From an uncultured Bacilli bacterium (GTDB lineage Bacteria; Bacillota_I; Bacilli_A; RF39; UBA660): a stretch of DNA of 64,000 nucleotides. Position 1 is the stretch's first letter. Each line of letters starts with the position of its first letter. Location of the stretch: contig CALVRA010000001.1 in the NCBI GenBank assembly GCA_944358415.1, positions 33,920 to 97,919 on the forward strand, read 5' to 3'. A program made the translations under genes and the position numbers. The notes under the pieces are model-generated. The model did no database searches. It had not been told where the DNA came from and saw only the letters and a program-made list of their open reading frames with translations. Positions 11,971-55,551 of the stretch are shown piece by piece.

Positions 11971-12837
11971 ATGATAAAATTGGAATGTGGTGATTTAATG
12001 TTAAGTAAATTTGATTATAGTAAAAATTTCATTGAAAATGATGAAATATTGGTATGTCCAATATGTAAAAAGAAATTATATATTAAAGAACATTCATTAA
12101 TGTGTGAAAATGCTCATAACTTTAATCTTTCAAAAAAAGGTATTACGAATCTTGTTTCACATAATCATATTAAAGAAAGCAAAATATATAATTATGATTT
12201 ATTTTTCAATAGAAGATGTTTCATTCAAAAAATGTTCTATCAAAAATTATATGATAAAATTGTCAGGATTATAAATAAACATTTTGATAAAAATATAAAT
12301 ATTTTAGATTTAGGCTGTGGAGAAGGGGCTCATACAATTAATATACTAAATAATTTAAAACTAAATTATAAGTATTATGGCTTTGATTATTCAAAAATAG
12401 CTATTCAAATGGCGAGTGATTATAATTCCAATAATAGATTTTATTTTGTAGGTGATGTTAATAATATTCCTATTAAAGATCATTCTACACATTTAATTAT
12501 TGATATACTTTCACCTTATAATCAGTTAGAAGTTAAAAGAGTTTTAAAGAAAAAAGGATTATTTATTAAAGTATCTCCAGGAAAAAACTATTTAAAAGAG
12601 CTTAGATTAGCTACAGGCATATCTATTTATGATAAAGATACAGAAGTTGAACGAAATTTGGAAAAAAATTTTAAAAAAGTGCGGAAAGAGAATATTTTAA
12701 TTACTTATCCTATTACTAATGAAGACTTTATGCTACTTTTAAAAATGTCGCCAATGCAAAGCGAAAAGATTTTAAATAAGCCTAATACAATTACAATTGA
12801 TTTAAATATATATATTATGAATGGAGAAGAATTATGA
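11971..12837 (+). CDS. RlmA-like SAM-dependent methyltransferase with N-terminal zinc ribbon
   Basis: CPICKKKL...CENAHNFNLSKKG zinc-ribbon and LDLGCGEG SAM motif, as in 23S rRNA G745/G748 methyltransferases. Its stop overlaps the next gene's start (ATGA). Confidence 0.7.
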   Translation: MIKLECGDLMLSKFDYSKNFIENDEILVCPICKKKLYIKEHSLMCENAHNFNLSKKGITNLVSHNHIKESKIYNYDLFFNRRCFIQKMFYQKLYDKIVRIINKHFDKNINILDLGCGEGAHTINILNNLKLNYKYYGFDYSKIAIQMASDYNSNNRFYFVGDVNNIPIKDHSTHLIIDILSPYNQLEVKRVLKKKGLFIKVSPGKNYLKELRLATGISIYDKDTEVERNLEKNFKKVRKENILITYPITNEDFMLLLKMSPMQSEKILNKPNTITIDLNIYIMNGEEL

Positions 12838-14150
12838 TTTCTAAATACGCAAATAAAATAAAAATCAAAAAAGATGTTTATGCAATATTTAATAGTTTAG
12901 TTATGTTACCCATTTTTGTTAACGAAAAACAATGTGCAAATATTTTAAATGGTAATATTGATAATTTAACTAATGAGGAAAAAACAGAATTTATAAAAGC
13001 CGGTATAATTATAGAAAATAAAGAAATTGATAATCAACTTTTAAATACACTAAAATCAGCACGTGAGCAATATATGAAAGAACATATCACTATAATGTAT
13101 ATTATTCCTACAAATACTTGTAATTTAAGATGTAAATATTGTTTTATAGGTAAACTTAATGATAAACCAATTAAAATGGAAGAAAGTACTTTGATTAAAG
13201 CCATAGAAATGTTTAATAGTCATTTAGAGAAAATAGGCGAAAAAGGGACTATATTTCTTTACGGAGCAGAGCCATTATTAAACTTTGATTTAATTAAATT
13301 AGGGGTTTTATATGTGAAAAAGCAAAATTATAATATTCAATTTTCTATGGTATCAAACGGAATACTTATAACTGAAGAAATAGCAGATTTTATAAAAAAT
13401 AACAACATCTCATTAGGAATTTCCATTGATGGTCCAAAAGAAATTACTGATGAAAATAGAATATTTAAAAGTAACAACAAAAGTGTGTACGATTTTGTTT
13501 TAAACAAAATAGAGTTATTAAAAGAAAAAAACGTTGATTTTGGTTTATCAATTACAATAGCACCTATTTTTCTTGAAAATGAAGACTATTTTCTAAATTG
13601 GATTTCTAAACTAGGAGTATATAACATTAGCTATAATTTATTACATTTCACTACTAAAACGGATGAATGGAAAGAATATTATAAAAAAGCAACTAAATTT
13701 ATTTATAAATCTAACAAAAAATTGTTTGATCAAGGTTTTAATGAAGATAGAATTAACAGAAAATATGATTCATTTTACAACAGAATATTTAAATTTAGTG
13801 ACTGTGGAGCGATTGGTGGAAATCAAATAACTGTATGTCCAAATGGTGATATTGAAATATGTCATGGTTATTGGAATTATAAAAGAAAAATTTTACCAAA
13901 CATTAATCAAATTCAATCATTTTCCGATTTATTTGATAATCCTGAATATATAAAATGGTCTAATAATATTACATTAAATAAGAAAAAATGTTTGCGTTGC
14001 CCTGCAATATATATATGTGGTGGTGGCTGTGCTATGCAAGCAAAGGATTTATTTGGTAATGAAAAGGAAATTGATAAACCATTTTGTATATATACTAAAG
14101 GAATGCTTAAAAACATATTAAAAGAGGTTTATGATGATAATATAAATTAA
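12834..14150 (+). CDS. radical SAM / SPASM-domain peptide maturase
   Basis: CNLRCKYC (Cx3Cx2C) cluster. C-terminal Cys-rich SPASM region (CGAIGG..CPNGDIEIC..CLRCPAIYICGGGC..FC). About 85-aa N-terminal extension. Confidence 0.85.
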   Translation: MISKYANKIKIKKDVYAIFNSLVMLPIFVNEKQCANILNGNIDNLTNEEKTEFIKAGIIIENKEIDNQLLNTLKSAREQYMKEHITIMYIIPTNTCNLRCKYCFIGKLNDKPIKMEESTLIKAIEMFNSHLEKIGEKGTIFLYGAEPLLNFDLIKLGVLYVKKQNYNIQFSMVSNGILITEEIADFIKNNNISLGISIDGPKEITDENRIFKSNNKSVYDFVLNKIELLKEKNVDFGLSITIAPIFLENEDYFLNWISKLGVYNISYNLLHFTTKTDEWKEYYKKATKFIYKSNKKLFDQGFNEDRINRKYDSFYNRIFKFSDCGAIGGNQITVCPNGDIEICHGYWNYKRKILPNINQIQSFSDLFDNPEYIKWSNNITLNKKKCLRCPAIYICGGGCAMQAKDLFGNEKEIDKPFCIYTKGMLKNILKEVYDDNIN

Positions 14151-14201
14151 TTGACTTCTAAGATATTATCATGATAGAATTAGCGAAAGGAGGGAAATAC
14201 A

Positions 14202-14387
14202 ATGAAAATAGCAAAAATTAGTACAACTAACAAAAAATTTAGAGCATCTAATTCTATGGCTTCTACTTGTAATTGTGGAGCTTGCAATTGCAATTGTGGT
14301 AGTGGAAGTAATTGCAGTAATGTTTTCATTTCACATGAAATAACATCATTGCTAAATGCTCAAGTCGATAACATTTTAAAAGCATAA
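14202..14387 (+). CDS. candidate RiPP precursor peptide (six-Cys, Cys/Asn/Gly/Ser-rich core)
   Basis: 61 aa. Strong RBS GGAGGG 8 nt upstream. Core TCNCGACNCNCGSGSNCSN. Immediately downstream of the rSAM/SPASM gene and followed by a terminator. Confidence 0.6.
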   Translation: MKIAKISTTNKKFRASNSMASTCNCGACNCNCGSGSNCSNVFISHEITSLLNAQVDNILKA

Positions 14388-18301: not shown

Positions 18302-18592
18302 TTATTTTTCTATTTTTGTAATTAAATGACGAATGATGTCATTATTGATAAGAGCTAAACGGTCAAATTCTTTAATTGCTTTGTCAGTTTCTGATTCAAC
18401 TTCAAAAACAAAGTAATAACCGCTTTTGAAATCTTTTATTTCATAAGCTAATTCTCTTTGTCCCATGTTTTCCTCTTTAGTTACTTTACCATCATTTTTA
18501 GTGATGATTTCTTTAAAGTCGTTTACTACTTTTTTTACTTCATCTTCACTTAATGTTGGTCTTACGATAAACATGATTTCATAGTTTTTCAT
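18302..18592 (-). CDS. rpsF: 30S ribosomal protein S6
   Basis: MKNYEIMFIVRP N-terminus. Operon position. Confidence 0.95.
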   Translation of the reverse strand: MKNYEIMFIVRPTLSEDEVKKVVNDFKEIITKNDGKVTKEENMGQRELAYEIKDFKSGYYFVFEVESETDKAIKEFDRLALINNDIIRHLITKIEK

Positions 18593-18714
18593 TTTCTACA
18601 CCTCCTTGTGGTCTAATTCGGCTTTTGTAATAAAAGCAAGGAGTAAATTAATTACTCGGCTTTGATTATACCAAAATATATTAGAAAAGTAAATATTTTA
18701 TGTTTAAGTTTGTT

Positions 18715-19125
18715 TTAAAATTTTAGTAAAATTTTTTCTATATTTTCTAGGATAGTGTTGATATTAGGGTTATTTTTTAAAATGTTTAATTTATTTGTTA
18801 TTTTGTTTATTTTTTCCTCAATGGTTAAATTATTTGGAATATAATTACTATAATTATTTTGTTTGAATGTTTTTTTAGTTATATCATCTTCAATAATTAT
18901 ATAATTTATTTTGAATTCTTTTAGTTTTGTTATTACTTTATCATAACTATTAGTAGGAAAACCTAGTCTTTTATTATTGTTTATTTCTTTTATTTTATAA
19001 TTAAATAAATTATTTAATATATAGGCATCTTCATTATATGTTTCATAGAATATTCCTACTTTTATTAATATTATGTATTTTGGATATTTGTTTTTATTTA
19101 AGTTATATTTTTCGATTATTTTCAC
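18715..19125 (-). CDS. standalone MutS-domain-I-like protein (candidate DGR accessory, MSL-type)
   Basis: Residues 14-80 align by eye to the MutS N-terminal mismatch-binding domain, including GIFYETY versus MutS GDFYELF (Phe-x-Glu motif retained). Immediately downstream of the TR. Confidence 0.6.
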   Translation of the reverse strand: MKIIEKYNLNKNKYPKYIILIKVGIFYETYNEDAYILNNLFNYKIKEINNNKRLGFPTNSYDKVITKLKEFKINYIIIEDDITKKTFKQNNYSNYIPNNLTIEEKINKITNKLNILKNNPNINTILENIEKILLKF

Positions 19126-19222
19126 AGCTTACCTCCAATTAAAAAAGCAGTATTAAATATTAGACAAAAATATGTCTTATATATGGTACTGCTTTAAAAT
19201 ATATTTTATTTATAGGGAAATG

Positions 19223-19390
19223 GTGTATGGATTTGACTGGGTTCCAGTTCCTCCTGTAATTTGGACATCAGAGGAAAGAGTTATGGCAGGGCGGACCGCG
19301 TTGTTCGTATTGTTCGCGTTGTTGTTGTTGACGTTGCCGTTGTTGTTCACATTGAACACGTTGTTAGAGTTACTAGAATTAGGCGACAAG
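19223..19390 (-). repeat. DGR template repeat (TR)
   Basis: 168-bp copy of the target gene's 3' end, rich in AAC/AAT codons. All but one difference from the VR lie at adenines of this copy (coding strand). Confidence 0.8.
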
Positions 19391-19523
19391 CAAAACAGTC
19401 CAAACATATTAGTATTGCCCCATATATTGTGCCAAAAATATTTTTTCGGCCATGGCGAGGCATTCGCCCCGCTACCAAACTCCTATCGGAGTTTGCGAAA
19501 TCATTCTATCCACTGTTTTATTC

Positions 19524-20453
19524 TTAACTCAAAGTGTATGGATTTGACTGGGTTCCAGTTCCTCCTGTAATTTGGACATCAGAGGAAAGAGTTATGGCAG
19601 GGCGGACCGCGTTGTTCGCAGAGAACGCGTAGGTGCTGTAGACGTTGCCGTAGTTGGTCACCTCGAACACGCGGCCAGAGACACCAGAATCAGGCGACAA
19701 TGTCCACCAAAAACTACTTGAACCAAACATCCAATCACTATTATTACATGTATGAGAATTACTATTATATGTACTGAATGTTTTACAGCTTGTATTTGAT
19801 CCCGCTCTTATATATTCGCTTACGGTTGGTAAGGCTACTTTTACATTTGATGTTGTTCCTTTTTCATCATTTATTTGATCTTGCATATCATTATTATTAT
19901 TTGTTACTGCCCCTGTATAATACGTTGACGTAACTATTTGACTTTGGGCAGTTGATGTTAAACTATTATAATAATCTTTATTCAAATATGTATTAAGACT
20001 TGCTGGACGATTCCAATTATTTGACATTGATGTGTCCCAAACTCTATTATCTATACTTGCATCCCTCATTATTTTTATAGTTCCATCTGAATTTATCGAT
20101 ATGATTCTCCAGCCGGCTTTCTCATTATTAAACGTTACATAATTATTGGGATTGGCTCCTTTATAGGTGTATTTTCCATCTTCATATTCATCTTCATATA
20201 AACCATCTCCTGAGGTTACTATATCTACATTATCTAATATTGTATCTCCGGTTGTTGGTGGGAAACAGACATTATAAAGTTCATCTATTGCTCCTTGGAC
20301 ATTAGTTGATGAAAGGCCACTTGCACTATTATCATATGTTGTTTGATTACTTGGAAAATATGTTGTTGCATATACTCCTACTACAGTAAATAATATTAAT
20401 CCGATAAAAAATCCTATTAAATATTTCTTTGAAAATTCTTTTATTTTCTTCAT
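19524..20453 (-). CDS. membrane-anchored surface protein, DGR target (C-terminal variable ligand-binding-type domain)
   Basis: N-terminal TM anchor. Conserved YDNSASGLSSTNVQGAIDELY module. C-terminal WWTLSP...AVRPAITL region contains the VR. Confidence 0.8.
   Translation of the reverse strand: MKKIKEFSKKYLIGFFIGLILFTVVGVYATTYFPSNQTTYDNSASGLSSTNVQGAIDELYNVCFPPTTGDTILDNVDIVTSGDGLYEDEYEDGKYTYKGANPNNYVTFNNEKAGWRIISINSDGTIKIMRDASIDNRVWDTSMSNNWNRPASLNTYLNKDYYNSLTSTAQSQIVTSTYYTGAVTNNNNDMQDQINDEKGTTSNVKVALPTVSEYIRAGSNTSCKTFSTYNSNSHTCNNSDWMFGSSSFWWTLSPDSGVSGRVFEVTNYGNVYSTYAFSANNAVRPAITLSSDVQITGGTGTQSNPYTLS
19534..19701 (-). repeat. DGR variable repeat (VR), at the 3' end of the target CDS
   Basis: The 3' 85 bp are identical to the TR. 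The 5' 73 bp (19619-19691) carry 21 substitutions, 20 of them opposite TR adenines. Confidence 0.8.
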
Positions 20454-20664
20454 ATAGATTTCCTTTCTAGTTTAGATTTATTATAAATGTTAAGCAGTGT
20501 CGAATGTTGTCTATTATTGTGATATTTTCTATTATTTTCATTATATAATATATATGAGATTTTTGCAATACAATTGCATTACAAACGTAATGTATCATTT
20601 GCTTATTATGTATACTAAAATTGTATTGACATATGCATTATGTTTATAGATAGGAGAGGGATAA

Positions 20665-20853
20665 ATGTTTAGATTAAAACCTGACAGGAAAGAGACTGAA
20701 AACAAATCAATTAGATTTCCCATAGATTTAATTAATCGTATTGAGAAAATATTAGTGGGAAAAAATATTTCTTTTACTGCTTTTGTAATTCAAGCCTGTG
20801 AATATGCGCTTGCTAATATGGAGGTTGAAGAAAAAAAGAAAGTAAATTCTTAA
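20665..20853 (+). CDS. small ribbon-helix-helix-type DNA-binding protein (putative)
   Basis: 62 aa. KSIRFPIDLINRIEKIL resembles an RHH beta-strand plus helix. Divergent from the DGR target gene. GGAGAGG RBS. Confidence 0.45.
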   Translation: MFRLKPDRKETENKSIRFPIDLINRIEKILVGKNISFTAFVIQACEYALANMEVEEKKKVNS

Positions 20854-21380
20854 ATAAAATTACTTTCTTTTAATTTGGTTATTATTGTTATTATTAAATC
20901 TACTAAAAATAATATACTTAATATTATAGTTAAGGATTTAGGAATTTTCTTTTCAATTTTATCGATAATTGGTTTTACAAAATAAATTACTAAGATACTA
21001 ATTATTCCCCAAGCTAAGGCCATTTCTAAAGTTATATATTTACCAATATTAAAGGTGAAATTTTTATAGTTCCACATAGTAATATTAAAAAGTTTTTCAA
21101 TTAAAATACCACCAAGCCATTCTATTAAGGTTAGGGTTACAGTTAGTACTAGGAAAGTTACTATTGTTTCAGTTACTCTACTTTTATGCATTTTTTTAAA
21201 TATTTGATTAGATATTATTATGGTTATAATCGCACCTATTCCATATATTGGGGTCCAAGGTCCGTATAGGATTCCACTTTCAAAGCTTTTAATTGAGATT
21301 AAATTAAAGATACTTTCTAAGAGAAAGCCTAAAATAGAGTAAATAAAAAAACAGTTAAGTAAATACATGTTAATCACCAT
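20850..21380 (-). CDS. polytopic membrane protein (DUF1113 / putative ABC-transporter type IV family)
   Basis: 176 aa, 4-5 TM helices. N-terminus FFIYSILGFLLESIF is typical of this family. Confidence 0.55.
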   Translation of the reverse strand: MVINMYLLNCFFIYSILGFLLESIFNLISIKSFESGILYGPWTPIYGIGAIITIIISNQIFKKMHKSRVTETIVTFLVLTVTLTLIEWLGGILIEKLFNITMWNYKNFTFNIGKYITLEMALAWGIISILVIYFVKPIIDKIEKKIPKSLTIILSILFLVDLIITIITKLKESNFI

Positions 21381-21392
21381 TATTAGTATGTA

Positions 21393-22001
21393 TTATTTAA
21401 CTGTTTTTAAACGGTATTTTTTATATATTTTTTTAGCGTTTTTTTCTAATTCTTCTAGTGAACCACTATTATTATATACAAAATCATATTCTATATTATC
21501 ATCATTATTAGTGAGTTTACATCTATAGTCTGATAGTTCTAGTTCTTTTGTGGTATTGGTTTTGCGTTCTCGTTTAGCTTTTCTAATTAGTCTATTTGAA
21601 TAATCACAAGTTACTTTTATTCGGTAATCAATAGGTATATTTAAATGATTTAAGTTAACACCTTCAATAATAATTAATTGGAAATTTTGTTTTTTTAATT
21701 TGTATAATTCTTTTTTTATTAAAATATTTACTAAAATATTTCTTAAAAATTCATAACCTTTAATTATTATTTTTTGATCACTTGTAGTAATAGGATTTTC
21801 ATTTAAACAAATGTGAGTATGATCATCATAAGGTATATATTTTATATGTTTAGAAAACAAGGTTCTTTTTAATTTATCAAAAACACAGTCCATTTCAATA
21901 ATATGAGATGAGATTTGTTTATCAAGTGCGCATTTATTAAGATATCTAGATAAGGTTGATTTCCCACAGCTAGATAATCCACATATTCCAATGATATCCA
22001 T
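21393..22001 (-). CDS. P-loop NTPase, nucleoside/nucleotide-kinase-like
   Basis: Walker A GLSSCGKST at the N-terminus. 202 aa. Start abuts the ychF stop. Confidence 0.5.
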   Translation of the reverse strand: MDIIGICGLSSCGKSTLSRYLNKCALDKQISSHIIEMDCVFDKLKRTLFSKHIKYIPYDDHTHICLNENPITTSDQKIIIKGYEFLRNILVNILIKKELYKLKKQNFQLIIIEGVNLNHLNIPIDYRIKVTCDYSNRLIRKAKRERKTNTTKELELSDYRCKLTNNDDNIEYDFVYNNSGSLEELEKNAKKIYKKYRLKTVK

Positions 22002-23107
22002 TAGACATTAAACCTAAAATGACAGATATCACCATCTTGCATGATATAGTCTTTTCCTTCTAGTCTTAGTTTGCCAGCTTCTTTGACTTTTAGTTCTGAA
22101 CCATATTTTTTTAAGTCATTAAAGCTCATGATTTCAGCTTTGATGAAGCCTCTTTCAAAGTCAGTATGTATTATACCAGCGCACTGTGGGGCTTTCATTC
22201 CTTGTTTATAGGTCCATGCTCTTACTTCATCTGGTCCAGCTGTGAGATATGTAGATAATCCTAGTAATTTATAAGAAGATTTAATTAATTTATCTAATCC
22301 ACTTTCTTCTATACCTAAGTCTTTTAAGAATTCTTTTTTATCTTCATCATCTAGTTCTGATAGTTCTGATTCTATTTTGGCACATATTGTTACAACTTCA
22401 GTTTTTTCTTTACTTGCGTATTCTTTTAATGTTTTAACATATTTATTTTCTTTATTTATGTCCTCTTCATTAACATTTGCGACATAGATGATTGGTTTTA
22501 AGGTAAGTAGGTTAAATGGTTTTAAGATTTTTAATTCTTCTTCAGTTAAATCTAAGTTTCTTGGATTGATATTTTTTTCTAAGTTTTCTTTTAGTTTTTC
22601 TAAAAGTTCAGCTTCTTTTAAGGCTTCTTTATCGTTTGCGAGTCTTGCTTTTTTTCCCATTTTGTTTAGTCTATTTTCGATTACTTCTAAGTCAGCTAGT
22701 TCTAATTCAACGTTAATTACTTCGGCGTCTCTTATAGGGTCAACATTACCAGATACATGGGTAATATTTGAATCTTCAAAACATCTAACTACTTCACAAA
22801 TGGCATCAACTTCTCTTATATGGGATAGAAATTTATTGCCTAATCCTTCTCCTTTAGATGCACCTTCGACTAGACCAGCAATATCTGTGAATTCAAAGGT
22901 GGCTGGGATTGTTTTTTTTGGTTTATACATGTTTTCTAGAAATGTTACTCTTTCATCTGGAACAGTAACCATTCCAACATTTGGTTCGATTGTTGCGAAA
23001 GGGTAGTTAGCAGCCAAAATATTTTGTTTTGTTATGGCATTAAATAAAGTTGATTTACCGACGTTTGGCAAGCCAACAATTCCTGCAGTTAAACTCATTT
23101 TCATCAC
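22001..23107 (-). CDS. ychF: ribosome-binding ATPase YchF
   Basis: GIVGLPNVGKSTLFNA, DIAGLVEGAS and a C-terminal TGS-like domain. 365-aa class. Confidence 0.95.
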   Translation of the reverse strand: MMKMSLTAGIVGLPNVGKSTLFNAITKQNILAANYPFATIEPNVGMVTVPDERVTFLENMYKPKKTIPATFEFTDIAGLVEGASKGEGLGNKFLSHIREVDAICEVVRCFEDSNITHVSGNVDPIRDAEVINVELELADLEVIENRLNKMGKKARLANDKEALKEAELLEKLKENLEKNINPRNLDLTEEELKILKPFNLLTLKPIIYVANVNEEDINKENKYVKTLKEYASKEKTEVVTICAKIESELSELDDEDKKEFLKDLGIEESGLDKLIKSSYKLLGLSTYLTAGPDEVRAWTYKQGMKAPQCAGIIHTDFERGFIKAEIMSFNDLKKYGSELKVKEAGKLRLEGKDYIMQDGDICHFRFNV

Positions 23108-23235: not shown

Positions 23236-24769
23236 GTGATTCAAGCTATTGAATTAATTAGAAAATATAAAAGTGAAACTAATATGATTGAAGTTAAGAG
23301 TGCGGCTGTAGGTTTTCCTAGAAGGTGTTATGATTCTTTTTCTAGTTTTGCTAATAAAAATGGCGGATTAATTATTTTTGGAATAAATGAAGATAAAGGT
23401 TTTATTTCAGAGAATGTTTACAATGTTAAAGAATTACAAAAACAAATATCTTCATTGTGCAATGATTCAATGAAACCAAAAATTAGGGCTGAAATATTAC
23501 CTATGGAATTTGAAGGCAAAAATATTTTGGCTGTAAAAATTAACGAATTACAGCAAAATAAAAAAACCTTGCTTTTATAAACCAAAAGGGATGAAAGGCG
23601 GTTCTTATATTAGAGTTGGCGATAGTGATATGCTAATGACAGACTATGAAATCTATTCATTACAAAGTTATAATGATCACATTATTGAAGATAAAAGACC
23701 TAATAAAAGTGCTTCAATTGATGATTTAAATAAAGATTCACTTATTAAATATATTAACAAAGTTAAGATAAATAAACCTAATTTTTCAAAAAATTTTTTT
23801 GAAAAAAATTTAAAGTTATGTGGTATAACTGATTCTTCTGAAAATAACATATATCCAACATTAGCTGGTACTATGATATTTGGTGAATATCCACAATGTT
23901 ATTACCCTCAATTATTTGTAGCTTGTGTTGTTGTTCCTGGAAAAGTATTGGGGGAAACTGGAGATTTGGGCGAAAGATTCATTGATAATAAAAGAGTGGA
24001 AGGTACTATTGAAGAAATGCTTGAAGGAACAATGAATTTTTTAAGAAGAAATATGAAAAATACAGTTATTATTGATGATAATGGAATACGAAGCAATAGA
24101 GCAGAATATCCTATAGAGGCTTTAAGAGAAGCTGTGGCAAACGCTTTAATACACCGAGATTACAGTACTCAAACAGAACATGCTTATATTTCCGTATATA
24201 TGTATGAAGATAGATTAGAAATTATTAATCCTGGTGCTTTATATGGTACAAATAAATTAGAAAAATTAGGAACTGATAATATGATGGAAGTTAGAAATCC
24301 TAATATTGTGAGAATTTTGGAAGAAAAAGGTTCTGTGATTGAAAATCGACATTCTGGTATTCCAACTATGAAAAGAGAAATGAAAAAATATAATTTACCA
24401 GAACCTGAGTTTTATGAAGAAAGAGGAAGTTTTAAAGTTATATTTAGAAATAGTTTAGGAATAACTAAAGAGTATGTTGAAAATCAATGGATAAGTCAAT
24501 TAAATGAACAAAATAGTGGACTACAAATTAGTGGACAACAACGTAATAAAAAAAGAAAGAAATTGATTGAGGAATATAAAAATCGTATACTAGATTTTTG
24601 CATAAAACCAAAAAGTGCAAAAGAAATTAGTAATTATTTACAAATAAAATCTAGACAATACCTTTCTTCAAACATTATTAATCCCTTAATTATTGAGGGT
24701 AAACTGGAATATACTAACAAAAGAAGTGTAAATGCGAGAAATCAAAAATATATAACTAAAAATAAATAA
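23236..24769 (+). pseudogene. frameshifted AlbA_2 (Schlafen-like) / HATPase_c_4-type putative transcriptional regulator with C-terminal wHTH
   Basis: ORFs 23236-23580 and 23591-24769 form one protein family architecture. The frame changes in an A7 run (23560-23566). The alternate frame reads KKPCFYKPKG, continuous with MKGGSYIRVG. Confidence 0.65.
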
Positions 24770-24830
24770 GCTATTAAATTTATTAGTAGCTTTTTATTTT
24801 AAATATACTAAATAAAAAATATGGTCATAA

Positions 24831-25100
24831 ATTAGTGGACTACAAATTAGTGGACTACAAATTAGTGGACAACAACGTATTAAAAAAAGAAAAGAATTGA
24901 TTGAGGAATATAAAAATCGTATACTAGATTTTTGCATAAAACCAAAAAGTGCAAAAGAAATTATTGATTATTTACATTTAAAATCTAGACAATATATCAA
25001 CAATAAAATAATAAAGCCACTTATTGAACTTAATTTATTGGAATATACTAATAAAAAACATATAAGGTCTAATAATCAAAAATATATAACGAAAAAATAA
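24831..25100 (+). pseudogene. orphan duplicate of the C-terminal wHTH module of the upstream regulator gene
   Basis: About 110 bp nearly identical to 24520-24640, then diverged. No upstream ATG in frame (a stop at 24828-24830 precedes). Carries 3 copies, versus 2 in the parent, of a 15-bp ATTAGTGGACTACAA unit. Confidence 0.5.
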
Positions 25101-41189: not shown

Positions 41190-41894
41190 TTAAAAGCCCC
41201 ATCTTTGTACGCTATATTTGACGTTAGAACTTGTGGATAGATGAATGGCTGGATCAGTTTCTGTTTCGTAGGCAAGGTCGATAAGGACTGTGCCTCTGTT
41301 CCAAGCGTTTTGCATTGCTCCACCAGTATCTAATACAATAGCGTTAAAGGTGCCTAGGTTTGGATTATCTACTTTGATAATTGTTCCACAAGGAAATTTA
41401 TCTAAAGCAGCAGCTATTATTCTAACTTCGCCAAATTCATCATCAATGTAGGTCATACCATCATTTGTTAGACTATGGTAAGAGCCAGTTTTGGTTTTAC
41501 AAGCTAGAGTTCCGTTTCCAGAGCACCCTATGCAGTCAGCACCATAACCTGTCATTTTTCCTACGTAATCGGCTTTATCACCAGTTCCAATTTCGATTTC
41601 TGCATTTTTTGGACTTTCAATGATTTGTTCGTTATTTTCTTCATCGATATAAGCAAGTCCGTTATGCCCCTTTTCCTTTGTGATAGTTACGCCTGTAGGA
41701 ATTTTTTTATTATAGGTTTTGACTGTATCATATTCTATAACTTTAGTTAAAGCTACAGAATTTTTTGTCTGGTTTAAATTTTTTACTTCAAATTTCGTTT
41801 CTGAAAATAGGTTACCAGATGTAATTATTCCTGTGATAGTTAGGATACTTATTAATAGAGGTATGCCTAAATATCTCAGGGGATATTTTTTCAT
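41190..41894 (-). CDS. G5 and 3D domain cell-wall protein (YabE-like)
   Basis: G5-like segment, then a 3D domain (MTGYGADC..GRIIAA..CGTIIKV..AIVLDTGGAM). Next to tatD, as in B. subtilis yabD-yabE. Confidence 0.7.
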   Translation of the reverse strand: MKKYPLRYLGIPLLISILTITGIITSGNLFSETKFEVKNLNQTKNSVALTKVIEYDTVKTYNKKIPTGVTITKEKGHNGLAYIDEENNEQIIESPKNAEIEIGTGDKADYVGKMTGYGADCIGCSGNGTLACKTKTGSYHSLTNDGMTYIDDEFGEVRIIAAALDKFPCGTIIKVDNPNLGTFNAIVLDTGGAMQNAWNRGTVLIDLAYETETDPAIHLSTSSNVKYSVQRWGF

Positions 41895-48368: not shown

Positions 48369-49325
48369 TTATTTTATTGTATAGGGATTTGACTGACTTC
48401 CATCTCCTCCTGTGATTTGGATTTCAGAAGAAATATAAACAACTGGTCGAATTGCACCTTCGTATTTAACAAAGTAGTCATTAATTTGTCCGGCTTTTTG
48501 ATTTGTATATCCAAATATGGCAAATACATGATCAGATTGATTGGCATCTGGAGTCAAAGTATATAAATTTTGAACATATGATGTACTATACAACCATGTA
48601 GTATTTTTACAGGTACTATAATTATTATTATATTTACTAAGCGTTCCGCAATTATTTTGATTACTATTACTTCTTAGATATTCTGATGCTGTTATTAATG
48701 CAACTTTATCGTTCCATATTTTTGTTTTCTCATCATTTATTTGATCTGATAAATTATTATTCCTTATTACTGAACCTATACTCCAATCTTTAGATATAAT
48801 TTGATTTTTAGCAGCCACATTTAACCCATTATAATATGTTCCATTTAAATATGTATTTAATGTGGCTGGCATTGTCCAGTTATTTAAAGTGGCACTGCCT
48901 CCACTGCCATTCCAATACATTGCTCCTATCGTTTCATCTTTTATTATTTTAATTATTCCATCACATTCGACTGATATGATTCGCCATGTTTCATTATTAA
49001 ATATTATGTAATTGTTAGGATTTGTTCCAGCAAAAAAATAACGACATTCATATTTGTCTGGATATAATCCATCACCAGTTGTTACTATTGGTACTTTTTC
49101 TAATATTTGAATTCCACCTATTGATGAAGTCTTGCACTCCTTATAAAGCTCATCTATTGCTCCTTGGACATCAGTACTTTGAAGTCCACTTGTTTTGTTA
49201 TCATATGTTACTTGGCTACTTGCAAAATAAGTTGCAGCTGATACTCCTATAGTACTAAAAACTAGGGAAGTTATTATAAAAACGAAAAGTTTGCTATTAA
49301 TAAACTTTTTTATTTTTGATTTCAT
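48369..49325 (-). CDS. membrane-anchored surface protein, non-diversified paralogue of the DGR target
   Basis: Same architecture and many conserved blocks as 19524-20453 (TM anchor, YDNKTSGLQSTDVQGAIDELY, ...IRPVVYISSEIQITGG). No matching TR. Confidence 0.6.
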   Translation of the reverse strand: MKSKIKKFINSKLFVFIITSLVFSTIGVSAATYFASSQVTYDNKTSGLQSTDVQGAIDELYKECKTSSIGGIQILEKVPIVTTGDGLYPDKYECRYFFAGTNPNNYIIFNNETWRIISVECDGIIKIIKDETIGAMYWNGSGGSATLNNWTMPATLNTYLNGTYYNGLNVAAKNQIISKDWSIGSVIRNNNLSDQINDEKTKIWNDKVALITASEYLRSNSNQNNCGTLSKYNNNYSTCKNTTWLYSTSYVQNLYTLTPDANQSDHVFAIFGYTNQKAGQINDYFVKYEGAIRPVVYISSEIQITGGDGSQSNPYTIK

Positions 49326-54981: not shown

Positions 54982-55551
54982 TTATTTAACTATTATTTCA
55001 CTATTTATATAGTTTCCATATAATTCTTTTATATTTGTATCAGAAGTACCGTCTAGATTCATTCTACGAATGTATTGGTAACTATTTGAATAAGCGTATA
55101 TATAATATATATACTGCTGTGTAACATATAAATGATATACATTTTTACTTGTACTTAATCTTACTTGATTATTACCATCTATATCCATTCTATAAATCCC
55201 TGAACTATTAGCATAATATATATAATTATCTTTAATAAAAATACTGGTAGGATTAATACCATATTTTCCAATTCTACTTGTCTTTCCACTATTTAAATTC
55301 ATTTGGAAAATGCCATCTTGGGGTTCTATATAATATAAATAATTATTTAATTCAGTTAAATGGCCACATTGATTATATAACTCATCTATGGCATCTTGAA
55401 CATTGGTTGCATTAAGGCTACTTGCTTTATTATCATATGTTGTTTGATTTGACGGAAAATATGTTACAGCACATACACCTACTATACTACATAATATTAT
55501 ACCTATTACAGTTCCTATTATTATTTCTTTAAAATTTCTTTTTTTTCGCAT
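54982..55551 (-). CDS. membrane-anchored protein: shared N-terminal module plus DUF5050-like beta-propeller repeats
   Basis: N-terminus (TM anchor, YDNKASSLNATNVQDAIDELY) is homologous to 19524-20453 and 48369-49325. C-terminal repeats YIYY..GIYRMDIDG / IRRMNLDG. Confidence 0.55.
   Translation of the reverse strand: MRKKRNFKEIIIGTVIGIILCSIVGVCAVTYFPSNQTTYDNKASSLNATNVQDAIDELYNQCGHLTELNNYLYYIEPQDGIFQMNLNSGKTSRIGKYGINPTSIFIKDNYIYYANSSGIYRMDIDGNNQVRLSTSKNVYHLYVTQQYIYYIYAYSNSYQYIRRMNLDGTSDTNIKELYGNYINSEIIVK

Follow-up and report, generated by a model that had tools for sequence, protein, structure and literature searches.

Organisation of the locus

The DNA analysed here, 64 kb of contig CALVRA010000001.1 from an uncultured Bacilli bacterium (called the window, which always means this whole stretch), is chromosomal, has a GC content of 28 % and carries housekeeping genes including dnaX, mfd, metG, ftsH and ychF. 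Upstream of the rpsF-ssb-rpsR operon it holds part of a diversity-generating retroelement (DGR): a target gene with a variable repeat (VR), a template repeat (TR) and a gene for a MutS-like protein (MSL), with no reverse transcriptase (RT) gene beside them. The order on the minus strand is ychF, an AAA_18 kinase gene, a gene for a CmpB-like membrane protein, a small YlcI-like open reading frame (ORF) on the plus strand, the target gene, a structured spacer, the TR, a hairpin, MSL and rpsF-ssb-rpsR (Table 1). The succession from target gene to rpsF operon had been proposed in a first reading of the sequence (the original prediction) and was confirmed by ORFs, repeats and Pfam assignments. The description of the cassette as wedged into the ychF/rpsF junction holds on one side, where rpsF follows 122 nt past MSL, but not on the other, where three more genes separate ychF from the target; the interval from ychF to rpsF measures about 3.4 kb and is of mixed content.

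Table 1. Coordinates of the cassette, its neighbours and a target-family paralogue in the window.
Feature	Position	Strand	Remarks
rpsF, first gene of rpsF-ssb-rpsR	18302..18592	-	Pfam Ribosomal_S6, E 2e-30
MSL-rpsF intergenic region	18593..18714	-	122 nt; site expected for Avd-RT
MSL	18715..19125	-	136 aa, GTG start; Pfam MutS_I, E 4e-9
Long hairpin and T-run, terminator-like	19141..19195	-	inverted repeat directly 5' of MSL ribosome-binding site
TR, full repeat	19223-19389	-	TR proper 19288..19389; anomalous extension 19223..19287
Conserved structured spacer	19390..19523	-	between target stop and TR
VR, full repeat	19534-19700	-	templated part 19599..19700
DGR target gene	19524..20453	-	309 aa; N-terminal membrane anchor, C-terminal DUF6273 domain with VR (Pfam DUF6273, E 9e-12)
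YlcI/YnfO-like small ORF	20665..20853	+	divergent from target; NCBIfam NF041551, E 4e-7, just under cut-off
ychF	22001-23107	-	
Target-family paralogue	48369..49325	-	318 aa; 48 % identical (tblastn); TR matches only the conserved 3' tail, no TR-matching VR

The target protein has more than 2000 homologues, many differing chiefly in the VR, which lies within the last 60 codons of the DUF6273 domain. The YlcI/YnfO-like ORF may encode a regulator. A promoter-like site for rpsF, TTTACT-17-TGnTATAAT at 18693>18665, was found by promoter scanning inside the MSL-rpsF intergenic region.

The junction with rpsF and the absence of RT and Avd

The original prediction had allowed for an RT lying just past a misassembled junction. 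The TR/VR repeats do break assemblies here, contigs L006, L007 and L008 each beginning within a repeat. Nevertheless, the MSL-rpsF junction recurs in four independent contigs (L002, L003, L006 and L007; 97-100 % identical to the window), which come from at least four samples and three assemblers. Unitigs were also analysed from runs X1-X7, mostly chicken-gut or faecal metagenomes holding the window sequence. A single 906-nt unitig in X1 (18347-19252) spans the junction at single-copy depth, and overlapping unitigs in X2 (18438-18677 and 18648-19252) cover it with zero differences. Misassembly is effectively refuted; the lack of an RT in cis is genuine. The MSL stop lies three or four residues later in the window than in its relatives, which fits a deletion with its breakpoint where MSL and Avd overlap.

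No RT was found in the window, as had been stated, and Avd is missing too. Searches by tblastn with RT and Avd of the clade returned nothing at E <= 1e-3 in the 64 kb, and clade-specific hidden Markov models gave best E values of 0.4 (RT) and 0.09 (Avd). A scan of window ORFs of at least 150 aa for [YF]xDD, with x limited to A/V/I/L/M/C/T, yielded a single motif, YIDD at 41450; the 234-aa protein containing it is not an RT.

Template and variable repeats

TR and VR align over 167 nt and are 87 % identical. Of the 21 mismatches, 20 coincide with a TR adenine; with 36 A among the 102 templated positions that make up the TR proper, this has P = 1.5e-10. The sole mismatch at another base is a T>G (TR 19351, VR 19662); other target VRs keep T at TR position 38, which places the change in the VR. 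All mismatches lie 5' of a GC-rich element, GCGGTCCGCCCTGCC (19596..19610, minus strand), which occupies the position of an initiation of mutagenic homing (IMH) element at the 3' limit of VR mutagenesis and is called IMH-like here on that ground; TR/VR homology in the related loci L010 and L016 stops at the GC-rich element. The open Asn-rich frame ascribed to the TR was also recovered (19210-19407, 65 aa). The window has two marks of a DGR, TR/VR differences almost confined to adenines and a GC-rich IMH-like element bounding the VR mismatches, and one mark of an MSL-type DGR, the MutS-domain-I gene beside the TR. It lacks the RT that a DGR cassette would encode, the avd that goes with MSL in MSL-type DGRs and the post-TR module that this clade has between TR and MSL.

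The window VR is identical in L006, in L022 and in a unitig of X1 and X2; in X1 this is one unbranched unitig at single-copy depth. That L022 has the same VR was rejected as a demonstration that the VR is frozen: L022 differs from the window in clusters, and the 3' 450 nt form one shared haplotype that is not independent of the window. The identical VRs appear to represent one clone, or a recombinant with the same 3' segment, and are weak evidence of stasis. In X4, two VR haplotypes (19561-19741; depth 4.4 and 5.7, together roughly one genome copy) were found, both unlike that of the window. Their listed changes fall at TR-adenine sites or revert the window T>G to the TR base, and their flanks resemble an L023-type gene (see below), which makes their assignment to a locus uncertain. 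They could be within-sample diversification or two paralogues.

RT-bearing relatives and the MSL gene

About ten independent loci were found to carry, as far as their contigs extend, a target gene with VR, a spacer of about 130 nt, a TR, a non-coding module of about 230 nt, a hairpin, MSL, Avd and RT, in this order (L001/L013, L009, L010, L011, L014/L027, L015, L016, L017, L018, L030-L032 and L033). The MSL stop overlaps the Avd start in these relatives, and their RTs carry YMDD and the DGR-typical IGNxTSQ. The MutS-like ORF of the original prediction is no oddity; it is the known DGR accessory gene MSL, and its homologues in the relatives precede Avd-RT. MSL is one of four DGR accessory-gene classes, and in the survey of Wu et al. 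(2018, PMC5758913) it always occurs together with avd. Homologues found here, 51-68 % identical, belong to uncultured Bacilli from the gut of chickens and humans; the window MSL and the MSL next to Avd-RT in L010 (MSL') are paralogues with 63 % identity.

DGRs of this clade often decay. The RT of L016 (4249-7445) is split by a 3.4-kb insertion that resembles a recombinase-in-trio element and encodes three tyrosine recombinases in tandem, and the RTs of L011 and L015 are truncated or frameshifted. In a second lineage (L004, L005 and L012) an intact MSL directly follows the target without TR, Avd or RT (L004:3-1449, L012:67-1630), and the VR region of the L004/L012 lineage is degenerate. Among strains that share the RT-less junction of the window, MSL shows six synonymous and four nonsynonymous changes, a ratio of nonsynonymous to synonymous polymorphism (pN/pS) of 0.11-0.16 (P = 0.003 against neutrality). 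Being intact and constrained in both lineages without an adjacent RT, MSL seems to be used without one.

Spacer, TR extension and post-TR module

The structured spacer had been given as 116 bp. It is structured, but its length is 134 nt when counted from the target stop to where TR homology starts; a count of 116 nt reaches the start codon (ATG) of the TR ORF. When folded together, spacer, TR and hairpin gave z = -3.97. Within the spacer lie a hairpin, CAAACTCC-GATA-GGAGTTTG, and, at 19435>19406, a promoter-like site (promoter scan); the spacer is conserved in L010, L016 and L001 and has about 1.5-2x depth in X1 and X2. The hairpin 5' of MSL is common to the relatives, with conserved AAGCAGTACC...GGTACTGCTTTTTT, and was not called by a simple terminator scan.

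The window departs from its relatives immediately 3' of the TR proper. Wherever the contig of an RT-bearing relative extends far enough, TR/VR homology covers about 110 nt, ends at the GC-rich element and is followed by a conserved module of about 230 nt with the motif ...AACTCTCTA..ACTATGGnTTATGAACnAATATGGTCATAA..AGATTAGAGA...ATATAGTCAGAGAT.... One hairpin of the module, TTATGAAC-loop-GGTCATAA, is invariant, and in a second stem compensatory changes maintain the pairing. It is present in L001, L009-L011, L014, L016-L018 and L028-L032 (for example L010:9711-9990); L015 and L033 start too near MSL to show it and were not counted. Scanning metagenome contigs with the motif identified six more loci, all with MSL-Avd-RT where the contig was long enough. 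The motif had no match in the window at up to three mismatches, blastn found no match to the module there, and no Rfam family matched either the window region or the module. The module is a candidate priming or RT-binding RNA.

In the window, the T at 19288 is followed by a 65-nt copy of the gene end, a diverged stop-codon region and the hairpin. This anomalous extension, an exact copy of the target 3' end (19534-19598), occupies the site of the module when aligned with eight RT-bearing loci. Paralogous target VRs diverge at ordinary non-adenine positions past the GC-rich element, and that stretch is therefore not templated. The 85-bp block of complete identity between the two repeats (19223-19307 and 19534-19618, 85/85), which the original prediction took as a sign of recent activity, consists of 20 nt of true TR and the 65-nt extension and for this reason says nothing about recent homing.

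A sister allele of the same species (L002 and L003) keeps the module 5' of the same RT-less MSL, so loss of Avd-RT is older than loss of the module. These contigs were considered as TR-less alleles, which was rejected, their upstream sequence being the post-TR module; the TR probably lies past the contig end.

A complete DGR in the same metagenomes

A DGR with module, MSL', Avd and RT was found in the metagenomes that hold the window strain, as a 5274-nt unitig in X1 and a 4023-nt unitig in X2. Both are 95.7 % identical to L010 (MAG, metagenome-assembled genome, BRZ_EQ__bin60; CALVVS010000002.1), and the sole indel is non-coding. L010-like RT sequence was present in all seven runs tested. Depth of the complete-DGR contig matched that of single-copy window unitigs in X1 (17.2 and 16.6-20.6, respectively), X2 (9.7 and 8.6-13.6), X3 (3.2 and 2.6-3.9) and X4 (3-9 and 6-11); the match rests on these four runs, which have clean single-copy window depths, and X5-X7 gave low-depth L010-like RT fragments only.

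The TR of the two elements is the same. A TR unitig (19299-19410) without differences to the window has about double depth (32.5 in X1, 15.3 in X2), and in X1-X4 a contig is identical to the window TR down to 19288 and then continues with TTGAACTCTCTAAAACACTATGGATTATGA, the start of the module. X1 contains only the window-type allele at the locus and only one module-bearing contig, and the TR-module junction therefore belongs to the complete DGR. A unitig of X3 links the module to the TR and, as far as 19506, to 117 nt of spacer, without any difference to the window. TR and spacer are 100 % identical over 219 nt in the window and the complete DGR, whereas the adjacent MSL genes are 63 % identical, a pattern that fits two copies homogenised in one genome far better than two organisms. 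L011 was also tried as the trans-acting DGR and rejected; its TR is 100 % identical over 75 nt, but it occurs in disjoint runs and the 5' part of its TR misfits the VRs.

One template and several targets

Near-identical target genes occur elsewhere, in L023 beside Dus/Flg_new...DnaG and in L024/L025 beside WhiA/HTH (helix-turn-helix), with no TR or MSL nearby at these loci. Templated VR differences to the window TR fall only at adenines (18/18 for window/L022, 20/20 for L023 and 23/23 for L024/L025), as do 21/21 in L026, a VR not assigned to a locus, which also has a 3-nt insertion; this insertion and the window T>G are the exceptions to the pattern across these VRs. X1 contains an L023-type target locus and another paralogue at depth 17. 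Judged by these repeats, one TR is compatible with the VRs of at least three or four loci, as in multi-target DGRs of the documented kind.

Small HTH/YlcI-like genes stand divergent from and adjacent to the target in the window (20665-20853), in L024 (9658-9894) and in L025 (142-378); in L023 a small HTH gene (1087-1302) lies about 2 kb upstream of the target, past another gene. The small upstream gene is possibly a dedicated regulator. The window also contains another target-family member, at 54982-55551, fused to a DUF5050-like domain; it and the paralogue at 48369-49325 share the N-terminal anchor and the TTYDN...VQGAIDELY motif with the target family.

Interpretation

On sequence comparison, the most likely origin of the locus is partial duplication of an MSL-type DGR, in an uncultured chicken-gut member of the Bacilli, with loss of Avd, RT and the module of about 230 nt. 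What remains is a functional-looking target including its VR, together with the conserved spacer, one copy of the TR and a paralogue of MSL. The same genome most likely holds a complete DGR with spacer, TR, module, MSL', Avd and RT, about 96 % identical to L010. We favour, with a probability of roughly 0.6, the reading that the window locus would be a remote target of this complete DGR, together with a decayed TR duplicate and an apparently used MSL paralogue. The complete element would transcribe its TR together with the module, and its RT and Avd would produce adenine-mutagenised complementary DNA (cDNA). VRs ending in the shared GC-rich element would be overwritten by this cDNA at several loci, and the window VR would be one such remote target. 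TR RNA from the window would end in target-gene sequence and the terminator hairpin and, lacking the module, can probably not act as a template; that the local TR copy is a dead duplicate is more likely than that it is the working template. By analogy, the module would be required for templating. The MSL at the locus would still be used. The original prediction had left open an RT acting in trans or a frozen cassette; co-occurrence of the complete DGR in seven of seven runs, with matching depth in X1-X4, gives better support to the former, and the frozen cassette is less favoured. An RT in trans had also been called unusual, which does not agree with published DGRs: non-adjacent targets were found for 45/372 of them, and avd, TR and brt function in trans experimentally (PMC5758913).

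Several points weigh against this reading. The window and the complete DGR lie on separate contigs, and their co-abundance might reflect a second, tightly co-occurring organism. The species-representative MAG with L010 has no match to the window-type MSL, so that either this MAG is without the window locus or two different species are involved. The depth of the TR unitig in X2 is only about 1.5x. That the module is required is an extrapolation, based on how it is conserved and on the DGR of Bordetella phage, and the L002/L003 allele, which keeps the module by an RT-less MSL, raises the chance that satellite TR cassettes might work. The RNA evidence is thin and may include DNA.

A fossil cassette, in a genome without a DGR RT, with a VR written before deletion of Avd-RT and with the co-abundant DGR residing in another organism, is improbable. 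The clade does lose DGRs repeatedly (L004/L005/L012 with target and MSL only; broken RTs in L016, L011 and L015), the post-TR module is lost, one non-A change is on the VR side, and one VR is common to the window, L006, L022 and X1/X2, X1 showing no variant unitig. Identity of VRs from one clone, or from a recombinant with the same 3' segment, is however weak evidence of stasis, and the depth of the complete DGR tracks that of the window over a roughly 6-fold range in X1-X4, RT fragments occurring in X5-X7 as well. The complete identity of TR and spacer beside MSL genes that are 63 % identical is hard to explain between organisms, and MSL remained under purifying selection after the RT was lost in cis. 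Rather unlikely, too, is a working satellite cassette in which RNA of the local TR, with or without the post-TR module, is used by RT-Avd supplied in trans and the local MSL acts at the target; TR-MSL modules would in that case be spread on purpose in the absence of an RT. Its TR has lost no adenine and is intact, the spacer 5' of it is conserved, MSL is constrained (pN/pS as above), the L002/L003 allele retains the module, and Wu et al. (PMC5758913) note that TR and RT need not be co-transcribed; runs labelled RNA-Seq gave thin, patchy cover that includes 19355-19438 and MSL, from libraries of ambiguous type that may be DNA. Yet the window allele has target-gene sequence where all RT-bearing relatives have the conserved module, and, an identical TR being already present beside an RT, the VR can be explained without the local copy. 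The more general proposal that RT-less TR-MSL modules may be maintained satellites, for which a master DGR would supply RT-Avd in trans while each MSL paralogue acted locally, is doubtful; MSL might then shield cDNA:VR mismatches from repair. If true, it would explain the intact, constrained MSL after loss of Avd-RT in at least two lineages. In recent work on DGRs, MutS-like genes have been taken to hint at an interplay with mismatch repair.

Other features of the window

A radical-SAM/SPASM enzyme gene (438 aa) is followed by one for a 61-aa Cys-rich peptide, ...CNCGACNCNCGSGSNC... (12834-14387 together), likely a maturase and precursor pair of a ribosomally synthesised and post-translationally modified peptide (RiPP). 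At 23236-25100, ORFs with a Schlafen AlbA_2 domain (114 aa) and with HATPase_c_4 (392 aa) seem to be parts of a single gene interrupted by a stop or frameshift; the Fic-like winged helix at the C-terminal end of this gene recurs as a 67-aa duplicate at 24897-25100.

Comparison with known DGRs

In the DGR of Bordetella phage BPP-1, RNA 3' of the TR acts in priming and the IMH is GC-rich. The system found here resembles it in the GC-rich element at the 3' boundary of mutagenesis and in structured RNA flanking the TR, and the complete relatives also share Avd and RT. Unlike BPP-1, which has no MSL, it has a post-TR module without sequence relation to the Bordetella RNA, and the window allele is without the module.

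DGRs with MSL form Architecture D, and one MSL is known from a Legionella DGR (PMC5758913). The window agrees with this architecture in having a MutS-domain-I protein 3' of the TR, a C-terminal VR and adenine-specific TR/VR differences, and its close relatives match it with MSL, Avd and RT in that order. It differs in that all MSL DGRs of Wu et al. have avd and RT in the cassette, whereas the window MSL stands alone by rpsF, and in the second MSL' (63 % identical) beside RT on separate metagenome contigs.

The DGR of Treponema denticola is an example with remote targets, of which it has seven (PMC5758913). As there, one RT and one TR would serve several scattered VRs, at least three or four loci fitting one TR here. 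The targets described so far are bare VR genes, in contrast to the window target with its duplicate spacer, TR and MSL paralogue. DGR surveys anchored on the RT miss remote targets (PMC8144416), and would miss loci such as the window cassette. The case is one of a small-genome gut bacterium in which one RT probably serves several surface-protein genes, and it indicates that pieces of a DGR, TR and accessory gene alike, can duplicate and decay independently. Of wider interest is the retention of a constrained MSL without an adjacent RT, and the two natural alleles, with and without the post-TR module, offer a ready comparison for the function of MSL and of the module RNA. The finding is a variation on known DGR biology and an ordinary consequence of trans-acting DGRs, not a new mechanism.

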